Shown here: positions 2,628 to 53,566 of the stretch, piece by piece
Layout of the letters: every line of letters begins with the position of its first letter
Numbering within the stretch: the stretch's first letter is position 1
Sequence record: OZ346219.1
Direction: 5' to 3' (one strand)
Length of the DNA: 64,000 nt
Source of the DNA: a phage
Program-made: the position numbers and the translations under genes
Notes under the pieces: generated by a model
What the model was told of the DNA's origin: nothing
Seen by the model: only the letters and a program-made list of their open reading frames with translations
The model's database searches: none

Positions 2628-5564
2628 ATGGCAGATTTAAACAGAATCCAATTTAAACGTACTAGCACGAAAGGTCGTAAACCTGATGCTACTACAATGA
2701 CGCAAGGTGAACTTGCTATCAACCTGCATGATTATTATTTGTTTACAAAAAATGACTCTGGTTCTATTATTAACTTAAGCTGTCCTCCGATCTATGACCG
2801 CGATGTTATCATGGCTGGTAAAGTAAAGGGAGATTATTACATTTTAGGTAAAACCGCCAATTATCTTGAAGATCAGACAGCGAGAGACCTTAACCGTTTT
2901 GGGGCATTCCGTACCAACGGTCTAGATGGATTTTTAGATTTGACCTTGCATGTTCCTCATTCTGGTGGCGTTCAACATGGTCGAGGATTTACTTTCAATT
3001 ATGGACACACAGGACCGCGCGTAGAAACTTATGGATATAATGCACAGGGACAAAAAGCATTTAGTTATAAAATGTATCACGAAGGTGATAAACCAACTCC
3101 AGGAGAATTGAACGTCTATAGCAAACAAGAAGTAGATAGAATGTTTGTTAAGAACGTTAAACTTTCTACAGGTTCTGGTGATATCGTTGAAGGTTATTTT
3201 AAATTAGCGACTGCGATGATTCCACAAGACGGTCGTAGTGTATTTTTTCGTATTCATGGTGGTAACGGATATAACGTTACTGCATACGATCAAGTTGATA
3301 TTGTAGAAATTGTTATTCGCAGTGGAAATAATCGTCCTAAAGGTGTTAACGTTATTGCATACCGCCGAAATACAAACAAAGCATTTGATGTTTTGGCTGT
3401 TAATACTTCTGGTGATAACTATGATATCTACGTGAAATATCAGCGTTGCACTGATAACGTTATTGTTGAATTTGGTAAAAGTGTTGATGTTAATCTGGTA
3501 GTTCATGACGTTCCAGACTTTGTTGTTGATCGTCCTGTTGGCGATAATGTTATTGGCGGTCGCGCGGTAACTCTTTTCAACACCGAAAACAAACGAGGTG
3601 TGTTGAGTTTTGACGATAACACACAAAATAGTTATGATATTGTTCACTTGAGTAATGATAAGGGTACTGGACGAAAATATATTCGTAAATTCCGTAGTAA
3701 CTATAATGAAACGATCTGGCATGAGACGGTTCAAGGTAACGTATATCGTTTAGCTACTGGAACTACCGACGCAAACGAAGTTCTCAAAATTACCGACCGC
3801 ACGTTGCAAACTGGCAATGCTGTTTTTGATGGTGGTAATAATAATGTTCGTTTACATCGTAAAACCGGAAAAAGTAACTATCTGGAATATTATGATGCCC
3901 GTAACGGAGCAAATAAACGTCAGGGATATATTGGCTATGGTGATGCCACAACTAACCAGTTGTCAATTATTAACGAACTCTCCGAAGGTAATAACTCGAT
4001 TTTCTTTAACGAGACAGGTCAAATTTCACTTAACGTAGGAAAGACAAAAATTGTTCATAGCAACGGACAATATATTTCTACTAACGCCGATAACTATCGT
4101 ATAATTTATGGTAATTATGGAACATTCTGGCGAAATGATAGCGTTAAACTTTATCTCATGTCCACTGCCGAAAATGATAAATGGGGTACTTGGAATAGCT
4201 ATCGACCATTCATTTACAACCTAACCAACGGCGATGTTCAATTGGGTGGTGATGCCAATACAACCGTATTGACCTTAGAAGCAGCAAGCAAAATCTCAAG
4301 ATTTGGTGGTTCTGTTTATAGCGGTGGCGATTTTTATAATAAAGGCCAGTATATCATAATGGAAGCTGGGCGCGCTGGATCTCGCGATTATATTCGATTT
4401 AATCATTGGGGTGATAGTAATAATGCCCGTGATAACGTTTTGTACATAGAAGATAGTCAAGGCCGACATTTTAGCACAGAACGTGCGATGGGTACTGGTG
4501 CTCTTAAAGCATACTTCTTAGGCGATCTTGAAGTCGGTGGTAAGTTTACTTGGGGTAAAAATACAGCTACATCTAGCTTTAATATTCGTGCATGGGGTAA
4601 TGATTCCCGTAAACAAGTATTAGAATGCGCGGATGAAAGTGGGTGGCATTGGTACACACAACGAACGGGCGGTCCTGATACTTCTGCAATTGATTTTGCC
4701 ATCAATGGTACTGTTAGGCCTCAAGCAATTCACACTGGCGGTAATATCACGCTTAACGGTGCTGATATTGAATTTAAACGAAGCGGTAACAAGCATTTAT
4801 GGTTTAGAGATCCGAACGGCTTAGAGTTGGGTCTGTTGTACTGCGATGATGCTGGTGTTATGCGTATTCGTGGGGAGAAATCGACCGAAGTATGGAAATT
4901 CTCAGCAAAACAGATTCATCTGGAAACTGGTACTGCCGGAAATGGTGTAGGCTTGCTTCGTGGTGCTGTAGGTGGTGGCGCATGGACTCAATGGCGAGAT
5001 CGTGGCACTGGCTTGCAGGTTGATTGTCAGCAATCTGAAAACTCAGCGCATAACGTATGGAGAGCTACGCATCAAGGAAAATACCACATCGCGGCAATGG
5101 GTGTACACGTTCCTGGTGGTACTATCGGAAATGCTATGGTGCGTATTCACGTACACGATGCAACTTTTGACTTTAGCGCAACTGGTGATTTCCAAGCAGG
5201 TCGTAACGGTAATTTTAACGATGTGTACATTCGTTCTGATGCTCGCCTGAAAATCAATAAGGAAGAGTATAAAGAGAATGCTACCGATAAAGTTAATCGC
5301 TTGACGGTATACACCTATGACAAGGTTAAATCTTTAACTGACCGTACTGTCATTGCTCATGAAGTTGGTATTATTGCTCAGGATCTTGAGAAAGAATTGC
5401 CAGAAGCAGTAAAAACCTCGAAGATCGGCGACGGTGATACACCAGAAGAGATCTTAACAATTTCTAACTCTGCTGTCAACGCTCTTTTAATTAAGGCGTT
5501 TCAGGAAATGAGTGAAGAACTTAAAGCCGTTAAAGCTGAACTAGCGGAACTTAAAAAGAATTAA
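2628..5564 (+). CDS. gp37: long tail fibre distal subunit gp37 (978 aa) with C-terminal intramolecular chaperone (peptidase S74-like) domain
   Basis: N-terminus MADLNRIQFKRTSTKGRKPD...GELAINL matches T4 gp37. C-terminus ...SDARLKINKEEY...AHEVGIIAQDLEKELPEAV...LKAVKAELAELKKN fits the S-D-x-R-L-K autocleaving chaperone domain of endosialidase-type fibres and lacks the T4 HxH needle repeats. Confidence 0.85.
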   Translation: MADLNRIQFKRTSTKGRKPDATTMTQGELAINLHDYYLFTKNDSGSIINLSCPPIYDRDVIMAGKVKGDYYILGKTANYLEDQTARDLNRFGAFRTNGLDGFLDLTLHVPHSGGVQHGRGFTFNYGHTGPRVETYGYNAQGQKAFSYKMYHEGDKPTPGELNVYSKQEVDRMFVKNVKLSTGSGDIVEGYFKLATAMIPQDGRSVFFRIHGGNGYNVTAYDQVDIVEIVIRSGNNRPKGVNVIAYRRNTNKAFDVLAVNTSGDNYDIYVKYQRCTDNVIVEFGKSVDVNLVVHDVPDFVVDRPVGDNVIGGRAVTLFNTENKRGVLSFDDNTQNSYDIVHLSNDKGTGRKYIRKFRSNYNETIWHETVQGNVYRLATGTTDANEVLKITDRTLQTGNAVFDGGNNNVRLHRKTGKSNYLEYYDARNGANKRQGYIGYGDATTNQLSIINELSEGNNSIFFNETGQISLNVGKTKIVHSNGQYISTNADNYRIIYGNYGTFWRNDSVKLYLMSTAENDKWGTWNSYRPFIYNLTNGDVQLGGDANTTVLTLEAASKISRFGGSVYSGGDFYNKGQYIIMEAGRAGSRDYIRFNHWGDSNNARDNVLYIEDSQGRHFSTERAMGTGALKAYFLGDLEVGGKFTWGKNTATSSFNIRAWGNDSRKQVLECADESGWHWYTQRTGGPDTSAIDFAINGTVRPQAIHTGGNITLNGADIEFKRSGNKHLWFRDPNGLELGLLYCDDAGVMRIRGEKSTEVWKFSAKQIHLETGTAGNGVGLLRGAVGGGAWTQWRDRGTGLQVDCQQSENSAHNVWRATHQGKYHIAAMGVHVPGGTIGNAMVRIHVHDATFDFSATGDFQAGRNGNFNDVYIRSDARLKINKEEYKENATDKVNRLTVYTYDKVKSLTDRTVIAHEVGIIAQDLEKELPEAVKTSKIGDGDTPEEILTISNSAVNALLIKAFQEMSEELKAVKAELAELKKN

Positions 5565-5598
5565 GGAAACTCCCAGGGAAGGGAACTACTAAGGAGAA

Positions 5599-5844
5599 AT
5601 GGCTATGGTCTATAATATCGTCATTGGTGCTTTATCTAATTTCGGAATGAAATTATTGTCAAAGTTAATTAGTGAAAAGATGCTCACTAAAATTTTCTTC
5701 TATTGCGCTCGTCGTCTTGCGGCTTATACCAATACACCAATTGACGATCGTTTTGTGGAAGAACTTTATAAGGAGTTTAATAAAGACCAGTCAGAAGATA
5801 GTAACGAGCAAGATAAACCTAGTGATAGTCAACTACCTAAATAA
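5599..5844 (+). CDS. hypothetical small protein (81 aa), hydrophobic N-terminus, acidic C-terminus
   Basis: Strong RBS (AAGGAG) 5 nt upstream of the ATG; occupies the slot between gp37 and holin t where T-even phages carry gp38. Confidence 0.45.
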   Translation: MAMVYNIVIGALSNFGMKLLSKLISEKMLTKIFFYCARRLAAYTNTPIDDRFVEELYKEFNKDQSEDSNEQDKPSDSQLPK

Positions 5845-5877
5845 GAGTACACTGTCATAGTTATCTTAGGGCATTAT

Positions 5878-6534
5878 ATGCAAGTTTCTGAAAAAGGGAA
5901 AGACTTTGCTATCTCAAATGTCCTGCGCGCTATTTTCACAACTAAAAGCACGGAGTTGCTCGTACTTCGTGTTTTTGCTGCCGTCGTGTTGTCCATATTG
6001 GCATTTGTCGTTTATAGTAAAAACGAGTTATTTGCGCTTTATAAAGAGACTCGTTATGAGACTTATGCTCACATTCTCCAGGTAGAGAAAGACCGCAATT
6101 TTGATAATGCAGCACAGGAGCAGTTACAGATAGTTCATGTGTCGGCTGATGCCGATTTTTCTGCTGTTTTTAGTTTTCGTCCGAAAAACCTAAACTATTT
6201 TGTTGATTTGGTGGCATATGAAGGAAAGCTACCACACACAATCGATGAAAAAAATTTAGGCGGATTCCCTATCAATAAAACGAGTGAAGAATATCGTAGG
6301 CATCTTTTAGGTAAATCATATTTTACCGATAAAGATTTCCAGTATATTCCATCAAGAGAAAAGAAATTAGAGAATATCGATATAGGTTTCATGTATTCTT
6401 GTCCTATATTCAATCTCGATAATGTCTATTCTGGTAGTATCGCCATTTCATGGAAGAATAAACCGGATATTGACATTGAGAATTTAGATACTCTTTGCAA
6501 TCAATCTGCCAGAATCCTCGGAAGGATTAGATAA
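5878..6534 (+). CDS. t: holin t (218 aa)
   Basis: Same length as T4 holin; conserved stretches LQIVHVSADADFSAVFSFRPKNLNYFVD, YSCPIFNLDNVYSGSI, ARILGR match the recalled T4 T sequence. Confidence 0.9.
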   Translation: MQVSEKGKDFAISNVLRAIFTTKSTELLVLRVFAAVVLSILAFVVYSKNELFALYKETRYETYAHILQVEKDRNFDNAAQEQLQIVHVSADADFSAVFSFRPKNLNYFVDLVAYEGKLPHTIDEKNLGGFPINKTSEEYRRHLLGKSYFTDKDFQYIPSREKKLENIDIGFMYSCPIFNLDNVYSGSIAISWKNKPDIDIENLDTLCNQSARILGRIR

Positions 6535-9582: not shown

Positions 9583-9616
9583 AATATATTCCTCAGTGTT
9601 TTGTCTTGATGGGAGT

Positions 9617-9645
9617 ATCTTACTACTCCCTTAATCCGGTGTCAA
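9617..9645 (-). promoter_or_regulatory. sigma70-type early promoter (TTGACA-17-TAAGAT) with -10 inside a GGGAGTA/TACTCCC palindrome
   Basis: Read on the minus strand: TTGACAccggattaagggagtagTAAGATactccc, then RBS and ATG of 8824-9582. Confidence 0.55.
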
Positions 9646-10354: not shown

Positions 10355-10386
10355 GTGATTCCCCTTCTTTCGTTTGGTATGGGAGT

Positions 10387-10415
10387 ATATTACTACTCCC
10401 GTTTCTTTACGTCAA
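10387..10415 (-). promoter_or_regulatory. early promoter TTGACG-17-TAATAT with GGGAGTA/TACTCCC palindrome around -10
   Basis: Minus strand: TTGACGtaaagaaacgggagtagTAATATactccc. Confidence 0.5.
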
Positions 10416-28232: not shown

Positions 28233-28868
28233 TCAAGCGAATGTAGAAAGCAAATGTTTTGTTTCTTTCAGTTGTCGTTCAAGATCTTTGCGTTTCTCTT
28301 TAAGTTGCATTTTAGCATTATTTCGCTGTTTTTCAACATCTTTATCAATGCTCTTATTCCAGTTATCAATATCAGAATAAGTTGGCATACCCAATTCTAG
28401 ACCTAATGCGGTTGGATACAGGGTAACAGTCCATAAACCGCTAATCTTCTTAAATAGGTCTGGGTGTAGTGTACTATCTACATCTTCTGGTGTCAACTCT
28501 TTTTCTTCTTTCAGTGGTGGGATCTCGTCATATGGTTCCAGTGCATTTACTTTAATATCAGATACCTCATCAAAGAATCCGCGTACATCCGCAGGAAATA
28601 CACAAGCAATTTCCCAACCGTGATCACGCAGAGAAGTAATATTTTTCACTCCCCCACCATGTGTGATGATTGATGTGACATTGCCATCAAGGTCCACCGA
28701 ATTTACGAGAAATGGCTTATCGTCTGTCAGATCATTATAAAACTGTGCTTCGGCTGTAGTCATCTCCAGAAACAGATCTCGGATCGTACGACCATCAGGT
28801 GCGTTACCTTCCTTGAGAGTATAAAAGCGACTTACGATCCATTTTGGCGGTAAAGCATTAGCGATCAT
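28233..28868 (-). CDS. hypothetical protein (211 aa)
   Basis: Track ORF. Confidence 0.45.
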   Translation of the reverse strand: MIANALPPKWIVSRFYTLKEGNAPDGRTIRDLFLEMTTAEAQFYNDLTDDKPFLVNSVDLDGNVTSIITHGGGVKNITSLRDHGWEIACVFPADVRGFFDEVSDIKVNALEPYDEIPPLKEEKELTPEDVDSTLHPDLFKKISGLWTVTLYPTALGLELGMPTYSDIDNWNKSIDKDVEKQRNNAKMQLKEKRKDLERQLKETKHLLSTFA

Positions 28869-43774: not shown

Positions 43775-45244
43775 CTATTCCCCATTACCATTATACTTTC
43801 TTTGCTTAGTTATCCACACTCTAACCATCTCTACAGATTCGCCGTCAGACGGATCAAGAGTTTTTCCTTTTTTCTTCATGCGGTACTTAAATCCGTTAAA
43901 TCTTGCATTCTCTTGCTCGTTAAAGTCGAACATCTTTTTAAATGATTTTCGCCCTTTACGTTCACCACATTCTAGCGGAATCATTCGATCTGTTATTACA
44001 TTGGCATTAGGCAGAAACGTTTTTAGATAATCCACCAACGCCCAATCAGGAACATATAGATTAACATTCTCCTTGCTCTCGTTGTCTCTCAGGTTACAAC
44101 GCAAACATAATTGAAATGCTGGTTCCAGATAATCAGACACATGACGCGCTTTCAAAAACTCGTTTGTCGGGAGATCACAACTATTAGCAAGACCTTTTAA
44201 AATATCAATCTCCCATCGTTGAGGGTTAAAGCTGAACATCACAGCAACATTTTTATGATGAATGTAAGAGTTAAGACCATAAGACCCGTAAGGTATCCGC
44301 TCACCAATACCATTTGTACACGCTTCACGGTCCCGATTCACGGTATAAATGAAGTCATCGCCACATTCATTTTTAACCATATCAACAAGACGTTCAAAGG
44401 TATTGTTTGTTTCTGACTGGTGACGCGACCATCGTTCAGAGTCCGTCATAAGGATGATATTAACTCTATCTGTATTTTTATACTCTTTGAAATATAGTCT
44501 GGATTCTAGCGCACTCGGAACAAAATCGCAATTTGCATAGTATCGTAGATACTTCCCACTATATGTATCAAAGAGATTTGCACATGCTATCGTAACCTTT
44601 TTAAAGTCTCCCCACGTACCGTGTTTGTTATCGTTCAAGAAAACAATTTTCGACCCATTCTTCCGGTGTCCTTCGTTATGTTTTACCATAACGTTGATTT
44701 TCTTCTCTAATAACGCCTCATAAAGCCCTCTAAGAGAAGAATCGATCATATCAGTACCATCCTTCGCACTTTCTATCTTTTCTTTGATAGCGGCCTTCTC
44801 AGAGTCTTTTAGAACTAAGTTCTGTAGGCATTCCGATTCGTCGGCGATTGGTTCGCAATGCTTAGTGATAAGTTCAAGATTAGACTTAAACGGATACTCA
44901 TTAAATTCAACCAGTTGAGGAACTTCATCAATGTAAAGAGCATAATCACCAAACATTTTTGAACGTTCCATATTAGATAACGCTGTATGTGTAATGAATA
45001 TCACATCAGCACCATCTTTAACTGATTGCATTATCGACGCTTGCACTGTCTTAAGGCTTCTTAGTCTTGTGCTATCAATCAAGACAGCACGACCGCCCAT
45101 TCTTTTAAACTTATTGTAAGATTGTTCACTTAAAACACGAGATGGCGAAGCAATAACCGCTTTTTCTTTTGTCTCTAGGACGTGGGAAAGTATAGCATCA
45201 GTTTTCCCCGCCGCTGGCAATGCGATTAATGTTTCAATCTTCAT
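43775..45244 (-). CDS. uncharacterised P-loop NTPase (489 aa) with helicase-like motifs
   Basis: Walker A LPAAGKTD (res ~9-16), motif Ia-like IASPSRVLSEQ, Walker B-like YIDEV (~res 105); not matched to any T4 protein I can recall. Confidence 0.5.
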   Translation of the reverse strand: MKIETLIALPAAGKTDAILSHVLETKEKAVIASPSRVLSEQSYNKFKRMGGRAVLIDSTRLRSLKTVQASIMQSVKDGADVIFITHTALSNMERSKMFGDYALYIDEVPQLVEFNEYPFKSNLELITKHCEPIADESECLQNLVLKDSEKAAIKEKIESAKDGTDMIDSSLRGLYEALLEKKINVMVKHNEGHRKNGSKIVFLNDNKHGTWGDFKKVTIACANLFDTYSGKYLRYYANCDFVPSALESRLYFKEYKNTDRVNIILMTDSERWSRHQSETNNTFERLVDMVKNECGDDFIYTVNRDREACTNGIGERIPYGSYGLNSYIHHKNVAVMFSFNPQRWEIDILKGLANSCDLPTNEFLKARHVSDYLEPAFQLCLRCNLRDNESKENVNLYVPDWALVDYLKTFLPNANVITDRMIPLECGERKGRKSFKKMFDFNEQENARFNGFKYRMKKKGKTLDPSDGESVEMVRVWITKQRKYNGNGE

Positions 45245-45552: not shown

Positions 45553-45711
45553 TTACTTAATGATACTTACTTTACCAGATCCATGACAATGAGCGCAACA
45601 CCCATCACCACGCAATCCTGTTCCGTTACAGTGTTTACACTTCTTCAACGGTAAAGCCATTATAGCAAATAAAGCAATAATGAATACCGAAACTAAATTC
45701 TCAATAATCAT
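45553..45711 (-). CDS. possible small membrane-anchored protein with two C-x-x-C-x-G-x-G zinc-finger motifs (52 aa); not in the ORF track
   Basis: Hand-translated: MIIENLVSVFIIALFAIMALPLKKCKHCNGTGLRGDGCCAHCHGSGKVSIIK; hydrophobic N-terminus then CKHCNGTG / CAHCHGSG. Confidence 0.35.
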   Translation of the reverse strand: MIIENLVSVFIIALFAIMALPLKKCKHCNGTGLRGDGCCAHCHGSGKVSIIK

Positions 45712-45970
45712 AAATCGCCCTCAGTTCTTTATAGCCTCCAATGTGCTCGTTGTCAATGAATATCTGGGGGTATACAAACCGGAGGCTCTTTGAGTTCAGC
45801 CTCCCCGCCAGTTCTTCAATCATATCACGGTCGGGAATAATGTCAACCCCGACCTGCTTGAATACTGGTTTAAGTGTATATGGAATACCCAGATCATCCA
45901 GTAGCTTCATTGCACTAATACAACCATAACAATGATAAGCCTCTTTCGGTATACCGTATATCTCGATCAT
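45701..45970 (-). CDS. nrdH: glutaredoxin-like protein (NrdH-like)
   Basis: 89 aa with CYGC redox motif near the N-terminus; position before nrdG as in T4. Confidence 0.55.
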   Translation of the reverse strand: MIEIYGIPKEAYHCYGCISAMKLLDDLGIPYTLKPVFKQVGVDIIPDRDMIEELAGRLNSKSLRFVYPQIFIDNEHIGGYKELRAIYDY

Positions 45971-46467
45971 TTCTCAGCCTTTAATCTTTCTAGTTCTTCT
46001 TCCAGTTCCTTGATCCGTTGGTCACGTTCAAAGTCACGCTGCAACTTAGTGGCGAATACTCGTTTAAACTGATTGTAATCATCGATTTTAAACACTTCTT
46101 CTTCGCCATAGCGACGCACAGAAACTTCGTAGTTATTGAAGAATTGTTGCATCATTGCTTCGGATGATAGTTCTGCTGATACTACTTTAAAATATTGATC
46201 TTCGGTAGGTGAAAACCAATTACAAGCATAAAGATAAACCTTTTCATTGTCTGGACACTGGTAAGCCTTACCATCGATTTCAATCACAGAAACATATTCA
46301 GGTATAGTAGATGAATCAATAGCTAAGACTTTAAACTGACGGTCCCCGATAAACTCGGAGATCACACGATTCGCATCACTGGTTGCAAAGGCTTTACGCG
46401 CTTGTTCGTTTTTCCACTGATAGGTCATGCCAACAACAAACATATTACCAACCTCGCTCTTTACCAA
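45967..46467 (-). CDS. hypothetical protein, divergent member of the W-E-V-G-K-T-Y paralog family
   Basis: N-terminus ...VVGMTYQWKNEQARKAF plus VSVIEIDGKAY and a coiled-coil C-terminus, similar to the three following ORFs. Confidence 0.45.
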   Translation of the reverse strand: MVKSEVGNMFVVGMTYQWKNEQARKAFATSDANRVISEFIGDRQFKVLAIDSSTIPEYVSVIEIDGKAYQCPDNEKVYLYACNWFSPTEDQYFKVVSAELSSEAMMQQFFNNYEVSVRRYGEEEVFKIDDYNQFKRVFATKLQRDFERDQRIKELEEELERLKAEK

Positions 46468-47269
46468 TCAAAAATTCAACTTCACGACGTTTAATGTCTT
46501 CTTGAAGGTCTTTAATCTTCTGGCGATCTTGCATTATTTCGTCCATCTTGTCAAGTGCTGCGATGAAATCATCGAAACGTTCAAAGGTTTTACCTTCATT
46601 TGCTTCGCTAAATTTAACCATTGTCAGGCCATAACGACTACTAAACAGACGTTTCAACTGTCCAACGATCTTAGAATCAGTGGTTATAACTTCCAATTCT
46701 TCTACTTCACGAAAGAATTTTCTATCAGAATCAATAAACCAGCTAGTTCCTTTATGGTCGCTATCTTCGGTTGCACTCATTAGAGTATGGTCTTTACCAT
46801 CAATTTCAATTACATTAACTTGCCCACATAGACTAACATTTTTAACAGTAAAAGGTCTATAATTTATTGCTCGTGCAATAACATAATTAAGGTTAGATAC
46901 GTTTTCAGCATAATGACAGAAGTCGGTCATAGCATTCGCATCTTTCCAAGTATAAGTTTTACCAACTTCCCATTTCTGGGGAACTTCTTCAACTTCACGA
47001 AAGAATTTTCGATCGAATGGACTAAAGAAATATGTTGCAGTCCAAATGTCTTTTCCTGTAGCAGTTTTCGCCGTATGATAAACACCGTCTAGCTCTATTG
47101 CATTAATCCAACCGTTACCCTCGATCTCGATGATGGTAAATGGCTTGTCACCAATAGCTGCACTAATATCGCTGTTAAGTGGAGAAAGAACACCTTCTCC
47201 GTTAGTAATAAACTCAGTTTTAGAGTTTTCATCTTTCCAAGTGTAAGTTTTACCAATTTCCCATTTCAT
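46445..47269 (-). CDS. hypothetical protein with internally duplicated W-E-(I/V)-G-K-T-Y-T-W-K-D domain (274 aa)
   Basis: MKWEIGKTYTWKDENSKTEF... and ...QKWEVGKTYTWKDANAMTDF..., each followed by PFT(I/V), IEIDG and RKFFREVEE. Confidence 0.5.
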   Translation of the reverse strand: MKWEIGKTYTWKDENSKTEFITNGEGVLSPLNSDISAAIGDKPFTIIEIEGNGWINAIELDGVYHTAKTATGKDIWTATYFFSPFDRKFFREVEEVPQKWEVGKTYTWKDANAMTDFCHYAENVSNLNYVIARAINYRPFTVKNVSLCGQVNVIEIDGKDHTLMSATEDSDHKGTSWFIDSDRKFFREVEELEVITTDSKIVGQLKRLFSSRYGLTMVKFSEANEGKTFERFDDFIAALDKMDEIMQDRQKIKDLQEDIKRREVEFLIGKERGW

Positions 47270-47281
47270 AATATATTCCCC

Positions 47282-47761
47282 TTAACCGATTTTATCAAGT
47301 TCGTTTAATGCTTTCTCTGCTTCCGGTATAGCTTGCACCCTTTCCGGCATTTTGTCAAGAAAATCTTTCAACTCTTCAAAACTGGAGATATGACGCAAGG
47401 CATTAGCACCGATAGCCGCATGTGATTTGCATTCAAAGCGAATTTTATAATTATCCATAGCCAATTTGAGAAGATCAATTAGTTTAGATTCTTCTGGAAT
47501 AATAATTTCTTCAAATCTGCTACGGTCGTGACACAGAAACCAACAATATAGACCTACATCGGTTGAACTCATATAAGTTCCATCATGAAGATATACAGAT
47601 CGCACGTATCCTTTTTTCGCATCAACCGACGCAACTTTAAACGGTAATCTCAGATATTTCAAATAATCAACATCATACCATTTAAAAAATTGTTTTGCAT
47701 CTTTTACATCTTTCCACGCATAGGTCTTACCAACTTCCCATTTCATAATATCATCTCTCAT
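47282..47761 (-). CDS. hypothetical protein, W-E-V-G-K-T-Y family paralog (159 aa)
   Basis: MKWEVGKTYAWKDVKDAKQFF at the N-terminus. Confidence 0.5.
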   Translation of the reverse strand: MRDDIMKWEVGKTYAWKDVKDAKQFFKWYDVDYLKYLRLPFKVASVDAKKGYVRSVYLHDGTYMSSTDVGLYCWFLCHDRSRFEEIIIPEESKLIDLLKLAMDNYKIRFECKSHAAIGANALRHISSFEELKDFLDKMPERVQAIPEAEKALNELDKIG

Positions 47762-48287
47762 TTTTGATACGTGATTCTAATTGGATCATACGGTCGCGCG
47801 TTTGCTTATATTCTCGGATAGCACCGATCCGGCTAGGCATACCATCCAGTACGCTCTTAATACCTTCTAGGGTAGTGATTTTAGCAATGCTATTATGTAA
47901 CCCCATCTTATCGATCAACTGAATGTCGTAGGCTTCCATAAGCAGACCCAGGAGTTCTAAAGTTAGGTCTTCTTCTTTTTCTTCCGATTCTGGAATCTTA
48001 GGTTCAATAGTAACTTCGGTAAAGAAACGACGCTCACCAGACCAAAACCACACACCGGAACAGCCAATAGGGGATTCTTTTAACGTCATAGAGTCGTAAC
48101 CACTTCCGATAATAGTAATTTCTCTAACATCACCATCATCGTCAATGTCTTCTACCATAAACGGGCGACCAGCCAACAGGTCCACAATACATCTGTTAAT
48201 AGACGACGAAAATTTAGTCAGTTCGGCTTTCGACGCTTCACATTCAATCTTGTAAGTTTTACCAACTTCCCATTCCATAATAATCAC
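47751..48287 (-). CDS. hypothetical protein, W-E-V-G-K-T-Y family paralog (178 aa)
   Basis: MEWEVGKTYKIECEASKAEL at the N-terminus; RRFFTEV motif. Confidence 0.5.
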   Translation of the reverse strand: MIIMEWEVGKTYKIECEASKAELTKFSSSINRCIVDLLAGRPFMVEDIDDDGDVREITIIGSGYDSMTLKESPIGCSGVWFWSGERRFFTEVTIEPKIPESEEKEEDLTLELLGLLMEAYDIQLIDKMGLHNSIAKITTLEGIKSVLDGMPSRIGAIREYKQTRDRMIQLESRIKNER

Positions 48288-48288
48288 C

Positions 48289-48798
48289 TCAAATAATTTT
48301 CACTGGAATACTATTAACAATCTTGTATTGTACTTGATTGTCAGACCCCCGCCACGGCTTCTTCGTTGGCATATCTTTAATATAACGCCCATCGATGAAC
48401 ATGTCAACAGATTCTACAATTTTTCTTTGCTCATCATTCAATTGGTCAAGGGTATAACCAGACCATAGCCAAATATCTTTATTTGGCATCCATGATTTTA
48501 CTTCATCGATGATCCGCTGTACACCCTTTAAATTGCGTTTATACAATGGATCGCCACCTAAGAATGTTAGTCCCTGAATAAAATCAGGTCTAAGCAGATC
48601 CAGAATCAATCCCATTGTATCATCGGTGAATGGTTCCCCGTTCTTAGGATTGAGTAGGCTAGCATTAAAGCAACCATCACATGCGTGTGAACATCCGGTA
48701 ACGTAAAGGGAGACTCTCACTCCCTCACCGTTAACCATATCACAATCTTTAATATCGGCATAGCGTAGTTTGCCGTATGTATCAGAACTCATATTCAA
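48289..48798 (-). CDS. nrdG: anaerobic ribonucleotide reductase activating protein NrdG (radical SAM)
   Basis: VTGCSHACDGCFN cluster and LTFLGGDPLY...KDIWLWSGY...KPWRGSDNQ match recalled T4 NrdG. Confidence 0.8.
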   Translation of the reverse strand: MNMSSDTYGKLRYADIKDCDMVNGEGVRVSLYVTGCSHACDGCFNASLLNPKNGEPFTDDTMGLILDLLRPDFIQGLTFLGGDPLYKRNLKGVQRIIDEVKSWMPNKDIWLWSGYTLDQLNDEQRKIVESVDMFIDGRYIKDMPTKKPWRGSDNQVQYKIVNSIPVKII

Positions 48799-49009: not shown

Positions 49010-49558
49010 TTATTTTAAATTTTTTCGAATGTAGTCAGACCATTCCTTCCCTGTCAGTTCGGTCCCATTCTGGAAACTGAAATATTCATACGGCATCGAG
49101 TCAAGATAAAACAGGATCATACATCGCGCCATATAATACCAATCACGATTAAAGTAAACTACGTTATCGCCAGTACCATCAGCACCTTTATCATAACCAT
49201 CGCGGGTACGGGCGACCCATTGAATAGTATCATTTTTCTCACGGATCGTAACAGGTTCCCAATATCCAGCACATCCAGCATGACCACACGAACAAGTAAG
49301 GAAATATTGTCCTTTTGCTTTGTTGTCGTCCCATTCACGATGGATTGGTTCGATCTCGTGAAACAGTGCTAAGCAATCATGATTATGCAACACTGGCTTA
49401 CCATCAATCAATGCATGGAATGTATACAAACGACCCGTAGACAAATAGCTATCCTCACGCTCAACCAGTTCAATAGCAATCTTTTTAGCTCGTTCTTTGT
49501 GTCGTTGTGCTTTACGCTTACGGTTTAATGATTTCATATTCACCTCACACATTATCAA
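49010..49558 (-). CDS. hypothetical protein (182 aa)
   Basis: Track ORF between nrdG and nrdD, where T4 has mobC. Confidence 0.45.
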   Translation of the reverse strand: MIMCEVNMKSLNRKRKAQRHKERAKKIAIELVEREDSYLSTGRLYTFHALIDGKPVLHNHDCLALFHEIEPIHREWDDNKAKGQYFLTCSCGHAGCAGYWEPVTIREKNDTIQWVARTRDGYDKGADGTGDNVVYFNRDWYYMARCMILFYLDSMPYEYFSFQNGTELTGKEWSDYIRKNLK

Positions 49559-50123: not shown

Positions 50124-50151
50124 ATTATACATTAGCTAATCATGTTGTCAA
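50124..50151 (-). promoter_or_regulatory. early promoter TTGACA-16-TATAAT
   Basis: Minus strand: TTGACAacatgattagctaatgTATAAT, directly downstream of the nrdD terminator. Confidence 0.55.
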
Positions 50152-50189
50152 CACCCCAAAACGAAAAAGCCGACCCTTTCGGATCGGCT
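50152..50189 (-). terminator. rho-independent terminator after nrdD (AGCCGATCC-gaaa-GGGTCGGCT plus U-run)
   Basis: 9-bp stem with one mismatch followed on the minus strand by TTTTTCGTTTTGG. Confidence 0.6.
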
Positions 50190-52101: not shown

Positions 52102-52596
52102 TTATTTTACCAGTTCTGCTAATTCTTTTTCTTTAGCTTCTAGTTCAGCTTTAAGCTGTTTAATCTCTTGTCGCTTCTTATTAGCGGCTTCCTGCTTACT
52201 ATTTCGGATAACCTGATCTAGATACAACTCCCAATCCTGAATATTTTTGATAATGTATCCGTCAACATTAATTGGTCGGAGATTCAGTACAGCTTCCAGT
52301 TTAGTCGCAAAAACTTTAATTGCTGGCGTGAAGTATTCATATTCGTTATCTTCAAACCAATAACCTAGACTTGCATTATCAATACGAAGACGAAGTTCAA
52401 GATCAAGGTCTTTATCTTCGGTGTAAAGATCTTTCACCTGACCCAGCGAACTAACAACAACTTTAAAACGAATTTTATCTACACCACCAAACACATCAGT
52501 AAGTATACCAGCAATTGAGCTATTAGCGCAAGATTGGTCGCTGAATGCGTCAAGGTTTTCTTTAGTTACAGTATACCAAACATCTTGTACCCACAT
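52102..52596 (-). CDS. hypothetical protein (164 aa), coiled-coil C-terminus
   Basis: Track ORF with promoter 52628-52656 upstream. Confidence 0.45.
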   Translation of the reverse strand: MWVQDVWYTVTKENLDAFSDQSCANSSIAGILTDVFGGVDKIRFKVVVSSLGQVKDLYTEDKDLDLELRLRIDNASLGYWFEDNEYEYFTPAIKVFATKLEAVLNLRPINVDGYIIKNIQDWELYLDQVIRNSKQEAANKKRQEIKQLKAELEAKEKELAELVK

Positions 52597-52627
52597 AATA
52601 TAATCCTCTCGTTGTTTAGATGGGAGT

Positions 52628-52656
52628 ATCTTACTACTCCCGTTTCATCATGTCAA
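52628..52656 (-). promoter_or_regulatory. early promoter TTGACA-17-TAAGAT with GGGAGTA/TACTCCC palindrome
   Basis: Minus strand: TTGACAtgatgaaacgggagtagTAAGATactccc; the -35 overlaps the upstream stop codon. Confidence 0.5.
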
Positions 52657-53237
52657 GCGTTAAATGACTTTTGGATCTCTTTCAGTTCAGCTACTTTATC
52701 GGCGCTGAATTTAGCGTAGGTATCATGTCGAATAATTTCACTTTCAAGAAAGGTTTCCAGCCGAGATCTATTTTCAATAAGGAACTCTTTCAGGTCTTCC
52801 GCGTTCTTGATAAAGATTTTATTGTCGGTAATGTCATCTTCAATCGCAAAGGAGATAGAGCGAACTTTACCAAACAAGTTAATCAGATCTTCCAGAGATT
52901 CTTCTTTCTTAACTGGTTTCATTTCTTCAAACTGCTTTTTAGTGATGCGTTTAAAGTATTTGCGCTCGCTTGCATCAATCATGATTGACGCACCCTCATA
53001 ATCATGAGTTTCTACCAAATACACTTTACCCATAACATTAACCGTAAGAACTTTAAAGCCCCTGTGAAGCACACCATACAGGAACTTGTTATGTTGTGGG
53101 TAGCGTTTAACAAATTCCTCTGCGGACTCAGCATTACGGAAAGTGTAATAACGACCTCGTTCAAAAACAGCATCAGTTGAAGACTTAACCGGATACAATT
53201 TATACGTTTTCTGTACCATAATATAATCCTCTATCAT
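52653..53237 (-). CDS. hypothetical protein (194 aa)
   Basis: Track ORF. Confidence 0.45.
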   Translation of the reverse strand: MIEDYIMVQKTYKLYPVKSSTDAVFERGRYYTFRNAESAEEFVKRYPQHNKFLYGVLHRGFKVLTVNVMGKVYLVETHDYEGASIMIDASERKYFKRITKKQFEEMKPVKKEESLEDLINLFGKVRSISFAIEDDITDNKIFIKNAEDLKEFLIENRSRLETFLESEIIRHDTYAKFSADKVAELKEIQKSFNA

Positions 53238-53506
53238 TTCACTAATTGAACAGCACGGAACAGAATGCGCTCACACGGAAGCAGCATAAATTCCCAACGC
53301 GGATCAAAGTCTTTAGCGGTGTATGTTTTCCCATCAACCGAGATTTCACTTACATAACCAACAGGTGACACTTTAAGAACAGTAAACCCATTCTTGATGA
53401 CTTCGTAGGTATCTTTCACCCCTTCGTATTCATCATCTAAGAAGTCTTTATGTGCTTGCTCAGATTTAAAAACATAGGCAACACCGGATTTAAACATCTT
53501 ACGCAT
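53234..53506 (-). CDS. hypothetical protein (90 aa; start moved to MRKMFKSG...)
   Basis: The promoter at 53538-53566 lies inside the longer track ORF; RBS AAGGAGA precedes the ATG at 53506. Confidence 0.4.
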   Translation of the reverse strand: MRKMFKSGVAYVFKSEQAHKDFLDDEYEGVKDTYEVIKNGFTVLKVSPVGYVSEISVDGKTYTAKDFDPRWEFMLLPCERILFRAVQLVK

Positions 53507-53537
53507 TGTTGATTCTCCTTCTTGATTAGATGGGAGT

Positions 53538-53566
53538 ATTTTACTACTCCCATTTCTTATTGTCAA
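53538..53566 (-). promoter_or_regulatory. early promoter TTGACA-17-TAAAAT with GGGAGTA/TACTCCC palindrome
   Basis: Minus strand: TTGACAataagaaatgggagtagTAAAATactccc. Confidence 0.5.

Follow-up and report, generated by a model that had tools for sequence, protein, structure and literature searches.

The DNA analysed here is a 64,000-nucleotide stretch of sequence record OZ346219.1 (the window), which comes from a Krischvirus (Straboviridae), an RB49-like coliphage. Four closely packed minus-strand open reading frames (ORFs) occupy positions 45967-48287 of the window, with nrdG (48289-48798) on one side and nrdH (45701-45970) on the other. A preliminary description of the window had reported four consecutive minus-strand genes at this location with five copies of a module of about 90 residues. 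All four ORFs are present at these coordinates, and the ORFs and the alignment confirm that reading. The likely true starts were taken from ribosome-binding sites together with the RB49 annotation, which gives the following genes and parts.

47751..48278, minus strand: array gene 1, 175 residues, start ATG at 48278, orthologue of RB49p051; one GoF-type module (nucleotides 48000-48278) and a C-terminal domain.
47282..47746, minus strand: array gene 2, 154 residues, start ATG at 47746, orthologue of RB49p050; one module (nucleotides 47492-47746) and a C-terminal domain.
46445..47269, minus strand: array gene 3, 274 residues, start ATG at 47269, orthologue of RB49p049; two modules and a C-terminal domain.
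46982-47269, minus strand: module a of array gene 3.
46688-46981, minus strand: module b of array gene 3.
46448-46687, minus strand: C-terminal domain of array gene 3.
45967..46443, minus strand: array gene 4, 158 residues, start ATG at 46443, orthologue of RB49p048; one module (nucleotides 46165-46443) and a C-terminal domain.

Every gene has its own Shine-Dalgarno sequence (GAGGTG for gene 1), the intergenic gaps are 12 nucleotides or less, and the stop codon of gene 4 overlaps the start of nrdH. The array region is 97.5-98.5% identical to those of RB49, JSE, phi1, kaaroe and other Krischvirus phages; 59 matching records were found, 57 of which cover at least 80% of the region. RB49p048-p051 and their counterparts are annotated as "hypothetical protein" in all records. 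As stated in the preliminary description, T4 has no such array at this position, its nrdH-nrdG interval holding only the 70-residue gene 55.8.

The five modules are clearly related to one another. In pairwise Smith-Waterman comparisons, all pairs score above 300 shuffles with z values of 4.4-40. The highest value belongs to the two modules of the 274-residue protein, which share 49% identity (z = 40); its description as a two-module member holds. The motifs WE[VI]GKTY.WKD, PF.[VI], [IV]EIDG and [RK]FF.EV are seen in the five-module alignment over about 95 columns. Searches with a module hidden Markov model (HMM) return E values of 3.5e-26 for gene 2 and 1.4e-30 for gene 4, and two domains in gene 3 (3.6e-31 and 7e-34). 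PHROG 5347 spans the full length of all four proteins with E values of 1e-57 to 1e-90 (3e-66 for gene 1). The C-terminal tails are therefore homologous too, and the duplicated unit is the module plus its tail rather than the module alone.

The array proteins also match PHROGs 622, 3710 and 5804 and, at E values of about 1e-9, two families, PHROGs 2980 and 13003, that carry the name "goF mRNA metabolism modulator". An HMM built from the five array modules only recovers residues 3-91 of T4 GoF at 26.9 bits, and Frd.2 and MotB.1 more weakly; in a joint alignment of 12 sequences that includes Frd.2 and MotB.1, the core columns Y9, F20, F44 and F90 are kept. Among the 120 best matches listed by a profile search over 5.8 billion proteins, the majority have a length of 134-141 residues, and many of the named ones are called "mRNA metabolism modulator"; the GoF-sized matches in this set share 23-29% identity with module a along 98% of the module length. 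Pfam FRD2 is found in 13 of the 129 distant representatives recovered with the module profile, the other Pfam matches being single chance ones. Pfam searches of the four array proteins themselves gave nothing at E ≤ 1 in three of them and a chance DUF4686 match in the fourth, and a sequence search of the PDB with the module profile returned nothing below E 0.15. Taken together, these comparisons show that the four genes are paralogues in tandem and make it very probable that they belong to the GoF/Frd.2/MotB.1 family, which is one of T4-like phages. The module corresponds to the N-terminal domain of T4 GoF, of Frd.2 and of MotB.1, so that T4 does possess the family, elsewhere in its genome and in three single copies, and the earlier suggestion of a lineage-specific family has to be given up.

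The predicted structures are in line with this assignment. The AlphaFold2 model of the 175-residue protein (26 sequences) shows a confident barrel, with block-mean predicted local distance difference test (pLDDT) values mostly of 72-91 in the N-terminal domain, and a weak tail. For the 274-residue protein (73 sequences), the mean pLDDT is 86.4 and the two barrels have block means mostly of about 90; the predicted template modelling score of 0.49 suggests domains that are not fixed in their positions to one another in this model. Each module is predicted to fold as β1, two helices, β2-β3-β4, a short helix and β5. The models are bent five-stranded antiparallel barrels of the SH3-like type, as had been guessed in the preliminary description. 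The best domain-level structural match is FeoA, as published for GoF, whose nearest solved structures are FeoA-type SH3-like domains (PMC12152347). The C-terminal domain of about 65-80 residues is modelled as a helix, a β-hairpin and then a helix of about 40 residues. A tail is thus present and homologous in all four genes, as first described, but it is not purely helical; the all-helical tail of the first, 26-sequence model, where confidence was low, is superseded by the 73-sequence model with its hairpin. Coiled-coil dimerization of the tails is not claimed.

The architecture known for the GoF family, an N-terminal barrel, a linker and a variable C-terminal domain in a protein of a T4-like phage, is found in the array proteins, the 274-residue member departing from it by its second barrel. 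A Foldseek search against BFVD gave 70 matches at E ≤ 0.001, all uncharacterized and nearly all from T4-like phages, the hosts of which include Escherichia, Aeromonas, Proteus, Pectobacterium, Serratia and others. A HMMER search over all 1.84 billion cluster representatives returned 135 clusters at E ≤ 0.001 with lengths of 36-392 residues, which fall into the same few PHROG families. Two or three modules are present in 27 of the 135, indicating that tandem barrels within one protein are recurrent in the family and not special to the 274-residue gene. No fusion to an enzyme or to another known domain was found in any of the 135 clusters. The module family is found almost only in T4-like phages; a scan of IMG/VR with a narrow alignment gave only three loci, all of them from Krischvirus.

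Outside the array, the array-only HMM finds four further, diverged family members in the window, beyond the coordinates of the preliminary description.

28233..28868, minus strand: diverged member, 211 residues, orthologue of RB49 Dc2 (array-only HMM E 5.8e-7; RB49 annotation; Foldseek match to "Dc2" of phage ECD7).
52102..53566, minus strand: second cluster, three diverged genes between gene 49 and nrdD.
53234-53566, minus strand: second-cluster gene consisting of the module only (E 4.4e-9).
52653-53237, minus strand: second-cluster gene, 194 residues (E 2.1e-4).
52102-52596, minus strand: second-cluster gene, 164 residues (E 9e-3).

Two RB49 genes of the second cluster are already annotated as "goF mRNA metabolism modulator" in RefSeq. 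The complete Krischvirus assembly OZ035808 contains 12 modules in nine genes at three loci within 27 kb and none elsewhere, compared with three single-module family genes in T4 (PMC12152347). At the canonical goF position, flanked by gene 39 and dexA, RB49 carries no gene of the family; the family has been relocated in this phage and not simply amplified. It is noted that the corresponding interval of the RB49 record (3205-5971) also has no annotated cef, motB, motB.1 or motB.2, while T4 keeps goF and motB.1 there. The Yersinia phage MHG19 (Tevenvirinae) carries a four-gene, five-module array, again including a two-module protein, at the canonical goF locus by the topoisomerase gene 39 (positions 2918-5744). 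Because this array sits at a different locus, local arrays of the family have arisen more than once. It should also be mentioned that the Dc2 orthologue lies directly downstream of the gene 41 helicase and that the phenotype of T4 GoF(D25Y) concerns gene 41 mRNA, which may be a coincidence.

To describe the variation of the array, the window was compared with RB49, AV108, FL04, ECD7 and Makalu_003 for identity and for nonsynonymous (dN) and synonymous (dS) substitution. The flanking genes (nrdG, nrdH, 55.2 and a gene for a 489-residue protein) are 97-100% identical, with dS of 0.00-0.21, mostly below 0.1. In the array genes, the identity goes down to 67-77% and dS reaches 0.3-1.1, with dN/dS of 0.17-0.57, below 1 throughout, and the gene that is divergent differs from phage to phage. 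This pattern of identity and dS by gene and by phage indicates that single genes have been exchanged for divergent alleles and that purifying selection acts on them, though in a more relaxed form than on the flanking genes. The number of modules varies as well. The 274-residue gene is a one-module gene of 177 residues in AV108, with a similarly short match in ELT4, and metagenomic variants show both possible module deletions of this gene. In variant P0026, the N-terminal motif of module a is fused to the body of module b, and in variant P0083 module a is joined straight to the tail. Both junctions coincide with direct repeats, inside a patch of D1 in P0026 and at D2 in P0083.

46920-46976, 47211-47267, 47688-47744 and 48220-48276, no strand assigned: direct-repeat family D1, four copies of 57 nucleotides.
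46697-46726 and 46985-47014, no strand assigned: direct-repeat pair D2, 30 nucleotides, 93% identical, 288 nucleotides apart.

D1 encodes the N-terminal motif KWE[VI]GKTY.WKD in four of the five modules, and D2 codes for DRKFFREVEE, where modules a and b end. They are the only extended DNA repeats in the array, and their spacing of 288-291 nucleotides is exactly one module. Given the junctions of P0026 and P0083, D1 and D2 are the two crossover sites for module loss. A role of D1 as a regulatory or translation-initiation element was considered and rejected: the internal module b shows the same degree of conservation in this patch, and the codons track amino-acid conservation and codon bias.

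On Logan contig SRR11185258_147272, the array has collapsed, leaving a gene 1/gene 3 chimera whose barrel is truncated, which hints that the array may be dispensable. On the same contig (4443-4935), the array gene 4 orthologue is broken up into two frames, of 72 and 123 codons, either by pseudogenization or by an assembly error. Copy-number variation among relatives, which had been proposed as something to look for, is thus found as one-module variants in AV108 and in metagenomes and as a collapsed array on one contig. Judged from these sequence comparisons, the array is a product of tandem duplication, remodelled by recombination at the conserved DNA patches at module starts and ends and by replacement of single-gene alleles. 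It is thereby a hot spot of variation inside an otherwise near-invariant nrdG-nrdH backbone.

The array can be placed in a probable transcription unit by the following sites, which are listed together with the promoter/stem-loop (PeSL) elements of the window.

50124..50189, minus strand: downstream of nrdD, a terminator-like stem-loop and after it a sigma-70 promoter of perfect consensus, TTGACA-16-TATAAT.
53528-53566 and 52618-52656, minus strand: PeSL cassettes of the second cluster, each a sigma-70 promoter with an embedded stem-loop.
9607-9630, 10377-10400, 52618-52641 and 53528-53551, minus strand: four copies of the PeSL stem-loop motif GGGAGTAGTAARATACTCCCATCT, none being expected by chance.

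The stem-loop at 50124-50189 corresponds by position to a terminator annotated directly downstream of nrdD in the Makalu_003 record. From the promoter at this site down to position 45000, no minus-strand terminator-like site was found. With a promoter upstream and no terminator-like site before 45000, the array is probably co-transcribed with nrdG and nrdH from this early-type promoter below nrdD. The RB49p054 orthologue upstream of nrdG (49010-49537, minus strand) is 97-98% identical in four Krischvirus genomes and 51% identical in Makalu_003, another single-gene allele replacement within the transcription unit of the array. On the other side of the array, the 489-residue protein (43775-45244, minus strand) has gene 55 and 55.2 as its neighbours; it shows 99% conservation in the Krischvirus phages compared, is absent at this place in T4, and gives only a weak DEAD-helicase hint in Pfam, for its Logan-contig orthologue.

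The second cluster has been remodelled at elements of another kind. PeSL cassettes such as those listed above have been described for the hyperplastic regions of RB49 and phi1 (Arbiol et al. 2010, PMC2839356), and two copies of GGGAGTAGTAARATACTCCCATCT lie inside TTGACA-17-TAARAT promoters upstream of GoF-family genes; no PeSL was found in the four-gene array. The window lacks the 392-residue, three-module GoF-family gene (RB49p058, "frd.2") that would be expected at 52594-52660 on the minus strand. An RB49p058 orthologue is present in all 59 Krischvirus records, and the junction seen in the window occurs as one contiguous match in none of them. Upstream of the 52102-52596 gene, the window has the same sequence as RB49 has upstream of p058. 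Since the crossover lies inside a shared repeat of PeSL and ribosome-binding site, the p058 orthologue has been lost by a PeSL-mediated deletion.

What the array proteins do can be approached from their T4 relatives. T4 GoF is an early, abundant (about 20,000 per cell) and non-essential protein, found as monomer and dimer; with GoF(D25Y), an mRNA that carries the gene 41 leader has a longer half-life, independently of Hfq (PMC12152347). The array proteins are acidic with isoelectric points (pI) of 4.7-5.0, one being near neutral, and the modules have pI values of 4.4-5.1 except for the gene 2 module at 8.5. The conserved module positions form the hydrophobic core (Y9, F20, F44 and F90), and the remaining sequence varies. 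Acidity, conservation of the core only and the absence of domain fusions make a scaffold for protein binding slightly more likely than a general RNA binder. If the T4 members are taken as a guide, the array genes would be expressed early from the promoter downstream of nrdD, and their products would be abundant, non-essential, small acidic proteins. The barrel would serve as a scaffold, with its conserved hydrophobic core carrying a variable surface that binds a partner, more likely a host protein of RNA metabolism or transcription than naked RNA, and the C-terminal domain would mediate self-association. The outcome could be post-transcriptional tuning of phage or host mRNA levels, with the paralogues aimed at different partners. 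We regard such a role, as small early adaptors acting on RNA metabolism or host takeover via protein contacts, as tentative and as only one of several possibilities. The account as a whole, with family identity, origin and adaptor mechanism combined, is the one we favour, with moderate confidence.

Several observations weigh against this account. None of the array proteins matches PF03197 (FRD2), even at E ≤ 1. Promoter-like sites number 36 in the region, hardly more than the 27.3 expected by shuffling (standard deviation 5.2), and the case for early expression here consists of consensus promoter matches only. A crude heptad-periodicity test for a coiled coil in the C-terminal helices did not reach significance (p 0.07-0.68). 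The T4 proteins GoF and MotB.1 in their wild-type form did little in the same reporter assay, and no partner besides GoF itself was reported from the GoF pull-down (PMC12152347).

The strongest competing explanation is that the array is a counter-defence battery in which each paralogue neutralizes or decoys a different host immunity protein and the turnover of alleles reflects an arms race. The mosaic replacement of array genes within a 97-100% identical backbone and the gain and loss of copies would fit such a role, as would small, acidic, phage-restricted proteins whose relatives are dispensable in T4 (PMC12152347) and a location in a hyperplastic region with PeSL cassettes (PMC2839356). However, no phenotype or partner, and nothing found in the literature, connects the family with a defence system, and its only functional data concern mRNA stability with mutant GoF; dN/dS stays below 1, and neither the array locus nor the three-module gene is missing from any of the 59 Krischvirus records, as would suit an accessory function under conservation equally well. 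PADLOC finds nothing, its library being one of defence and not anti-defence proteins. On this evidence we consider a counter-defence battery unlikely.

Still less probable, in our view, is that the modules are true LSm/Hfq-like RNA chaperones, which would contact RNA themselves, possibly in the form of rings or dimers, and shield the transcripts of the phage, with tandem copies providing several RNA-binding surfaces. In its favour, the family has been called "LSm-like", and the half-life of a reporter mRNA is longer with GoF(D25Y) (PMC12152347). The residues altered by the classic T4 goF suppressor changes, G84R and D25Y (PMC12152347), can also be cited for it. At the position equivalent to GoF G84, 51 of the 142 modules of the family have lysine or arginine, the commonest residue type there, and three of the array's five modules are among them; the D25-equivalent is tyrosine, tryptophan or phenylalanine in three of the five array modules. 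The D25-equivalent column is, however, variable across 151 family modules (R, E, D, Y, L and others), so that suppressor-type residues native to array modules are to be taken as a hypothesis and a lead only. The acidity of all modules but that of gene 2 speaks against direct RNA binding, as do the near inactivity of wild-type GoF and MotB.1 and the lack of confident AlphaFold3 oligomers of GoF (PMC12152347). The combination that marks LSm/Hfq proteins, an N-terminal helix, a five-stranded sheet, Sm1/Sm2 motifs and an Sm or Hfq match, is not found: the models have no N-terminal helix and two helices inserted between β1 and β2, and Pfam gives no LSM or Hfq match.

That the array is decaying duplicated DNA without current function, as the metagenomic contig, with its truncated module of chimeric origin and a fourth gene that seems to be frameshifted, and the laboratory dispensability of the T4 homologues (PMC12152347) might suggest, is very improbable in view of ORFs that are intact in every record examined, tightly spaced and with their own ribosome-binding sites, of dN/dS values (0.10-0.57) that signify purifying selection, of well-folded AlphaFold2 models and of the presence of the locus in 57-59 sequenced Krischvirus genomes.

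Returning to the array as a set of GoF-family adaptors, a bolder version of that proposal can be formulated, to which we attach little confidence. Krischvirus would have given up the gene at the goF locus and would use nine GoF-type genes (12 barrels) with fast turnover of surface and copy number, each paralogue being a specificity variant for a different host protein of RNA metabolism or immunity. Several of them, natively carrying the suppressor residues (K/R at G84, an aromatic residue at D25), might hence have the mRNA-stabilizing activity that is absent from wild-type GoF.

The family itself is already known; it is present in T4 and was recognized only in 2025 (Kim et al. 2025, PMC12152347). 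That paper mentions neither RB49 nor tandem or duplicated family members. A literature search on goF, frd.2, motB.1 and RB49 found only this paper and the PeSL papers, and the array itself is not mentioned in them. What is new here is the placement of the "hypothetical" array genes in the GoF family, the three- to four-fold expansion of the family in Krischvirus with multi-barrel proteins, and the nature of the array as a hot spot of recombination for which natural variants in copy number are documented. Beyond what T4 provides, Krischvirus offers nine paralogues, forms with one, two and three barrels, natural deletions and divergent alleles in a near-isogenic background. Such material makes it easy to test whether RNA or protein is the ligand of the barrel and whether the residues of the goF suppressors mark the surface that is active. 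Should each paralogue prove to have a host factor of its own as target, the array would show a phage diversifying one small scaffold; if not, the result is one of routine annotation, with "hypothetical proteins" relabelled as members of the GoF family.

We have compared the array with the known systems that it resembles. The closest is T4 GoF (ComC-alpha) of 141 residues, which shares the N-terminal barrel of about 90 residues at 23-29% identity to module a, the order of barrel, linker and small C-terminal domain, the acidity and the occurrence in Straboviridae. GoF is a single gene by gene 39, whereas the Krischvirus array consists of four adjacent genes between nrdG and nrdH, one of them two-barrelled. 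The C-terminal domain of the array proteins is also longer, with a helix, a hairpin and a 40-residue helix in place of the short strand and helix of GoF, and the motif WE[VI]GKTY.WKD is specific to the array subgroup. T4 Frd.2 (PF03197) and MotB.1 belong to the same superfamily as the array (PMC12152347 and the joint alignment) but show an identity of only 18-23% and lie at different genomic loci. The likeness to FeoA and other SH3-like barrels (CATH 2.30.30.90), Tudor and KOW domains is one of fold only, at 8-15% identity. The array modules have two helices inserted between β1 and β2 that set them apart from the FeoA, Tudor and KOW barrels; they have no Pfam match to FeoA (PF04023) that would make them members of it, no metal-binding histidines and no KOW motif. 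As for PeSL-mediated shuffling (PMC2839356), the 52.1-53.6 kb cluster resembles the published cases in being flanked by PeSLs and in having lost the p058 orthologue by a crossover inside two of them, whereas the array rearranges at coding patches of module boundaries.

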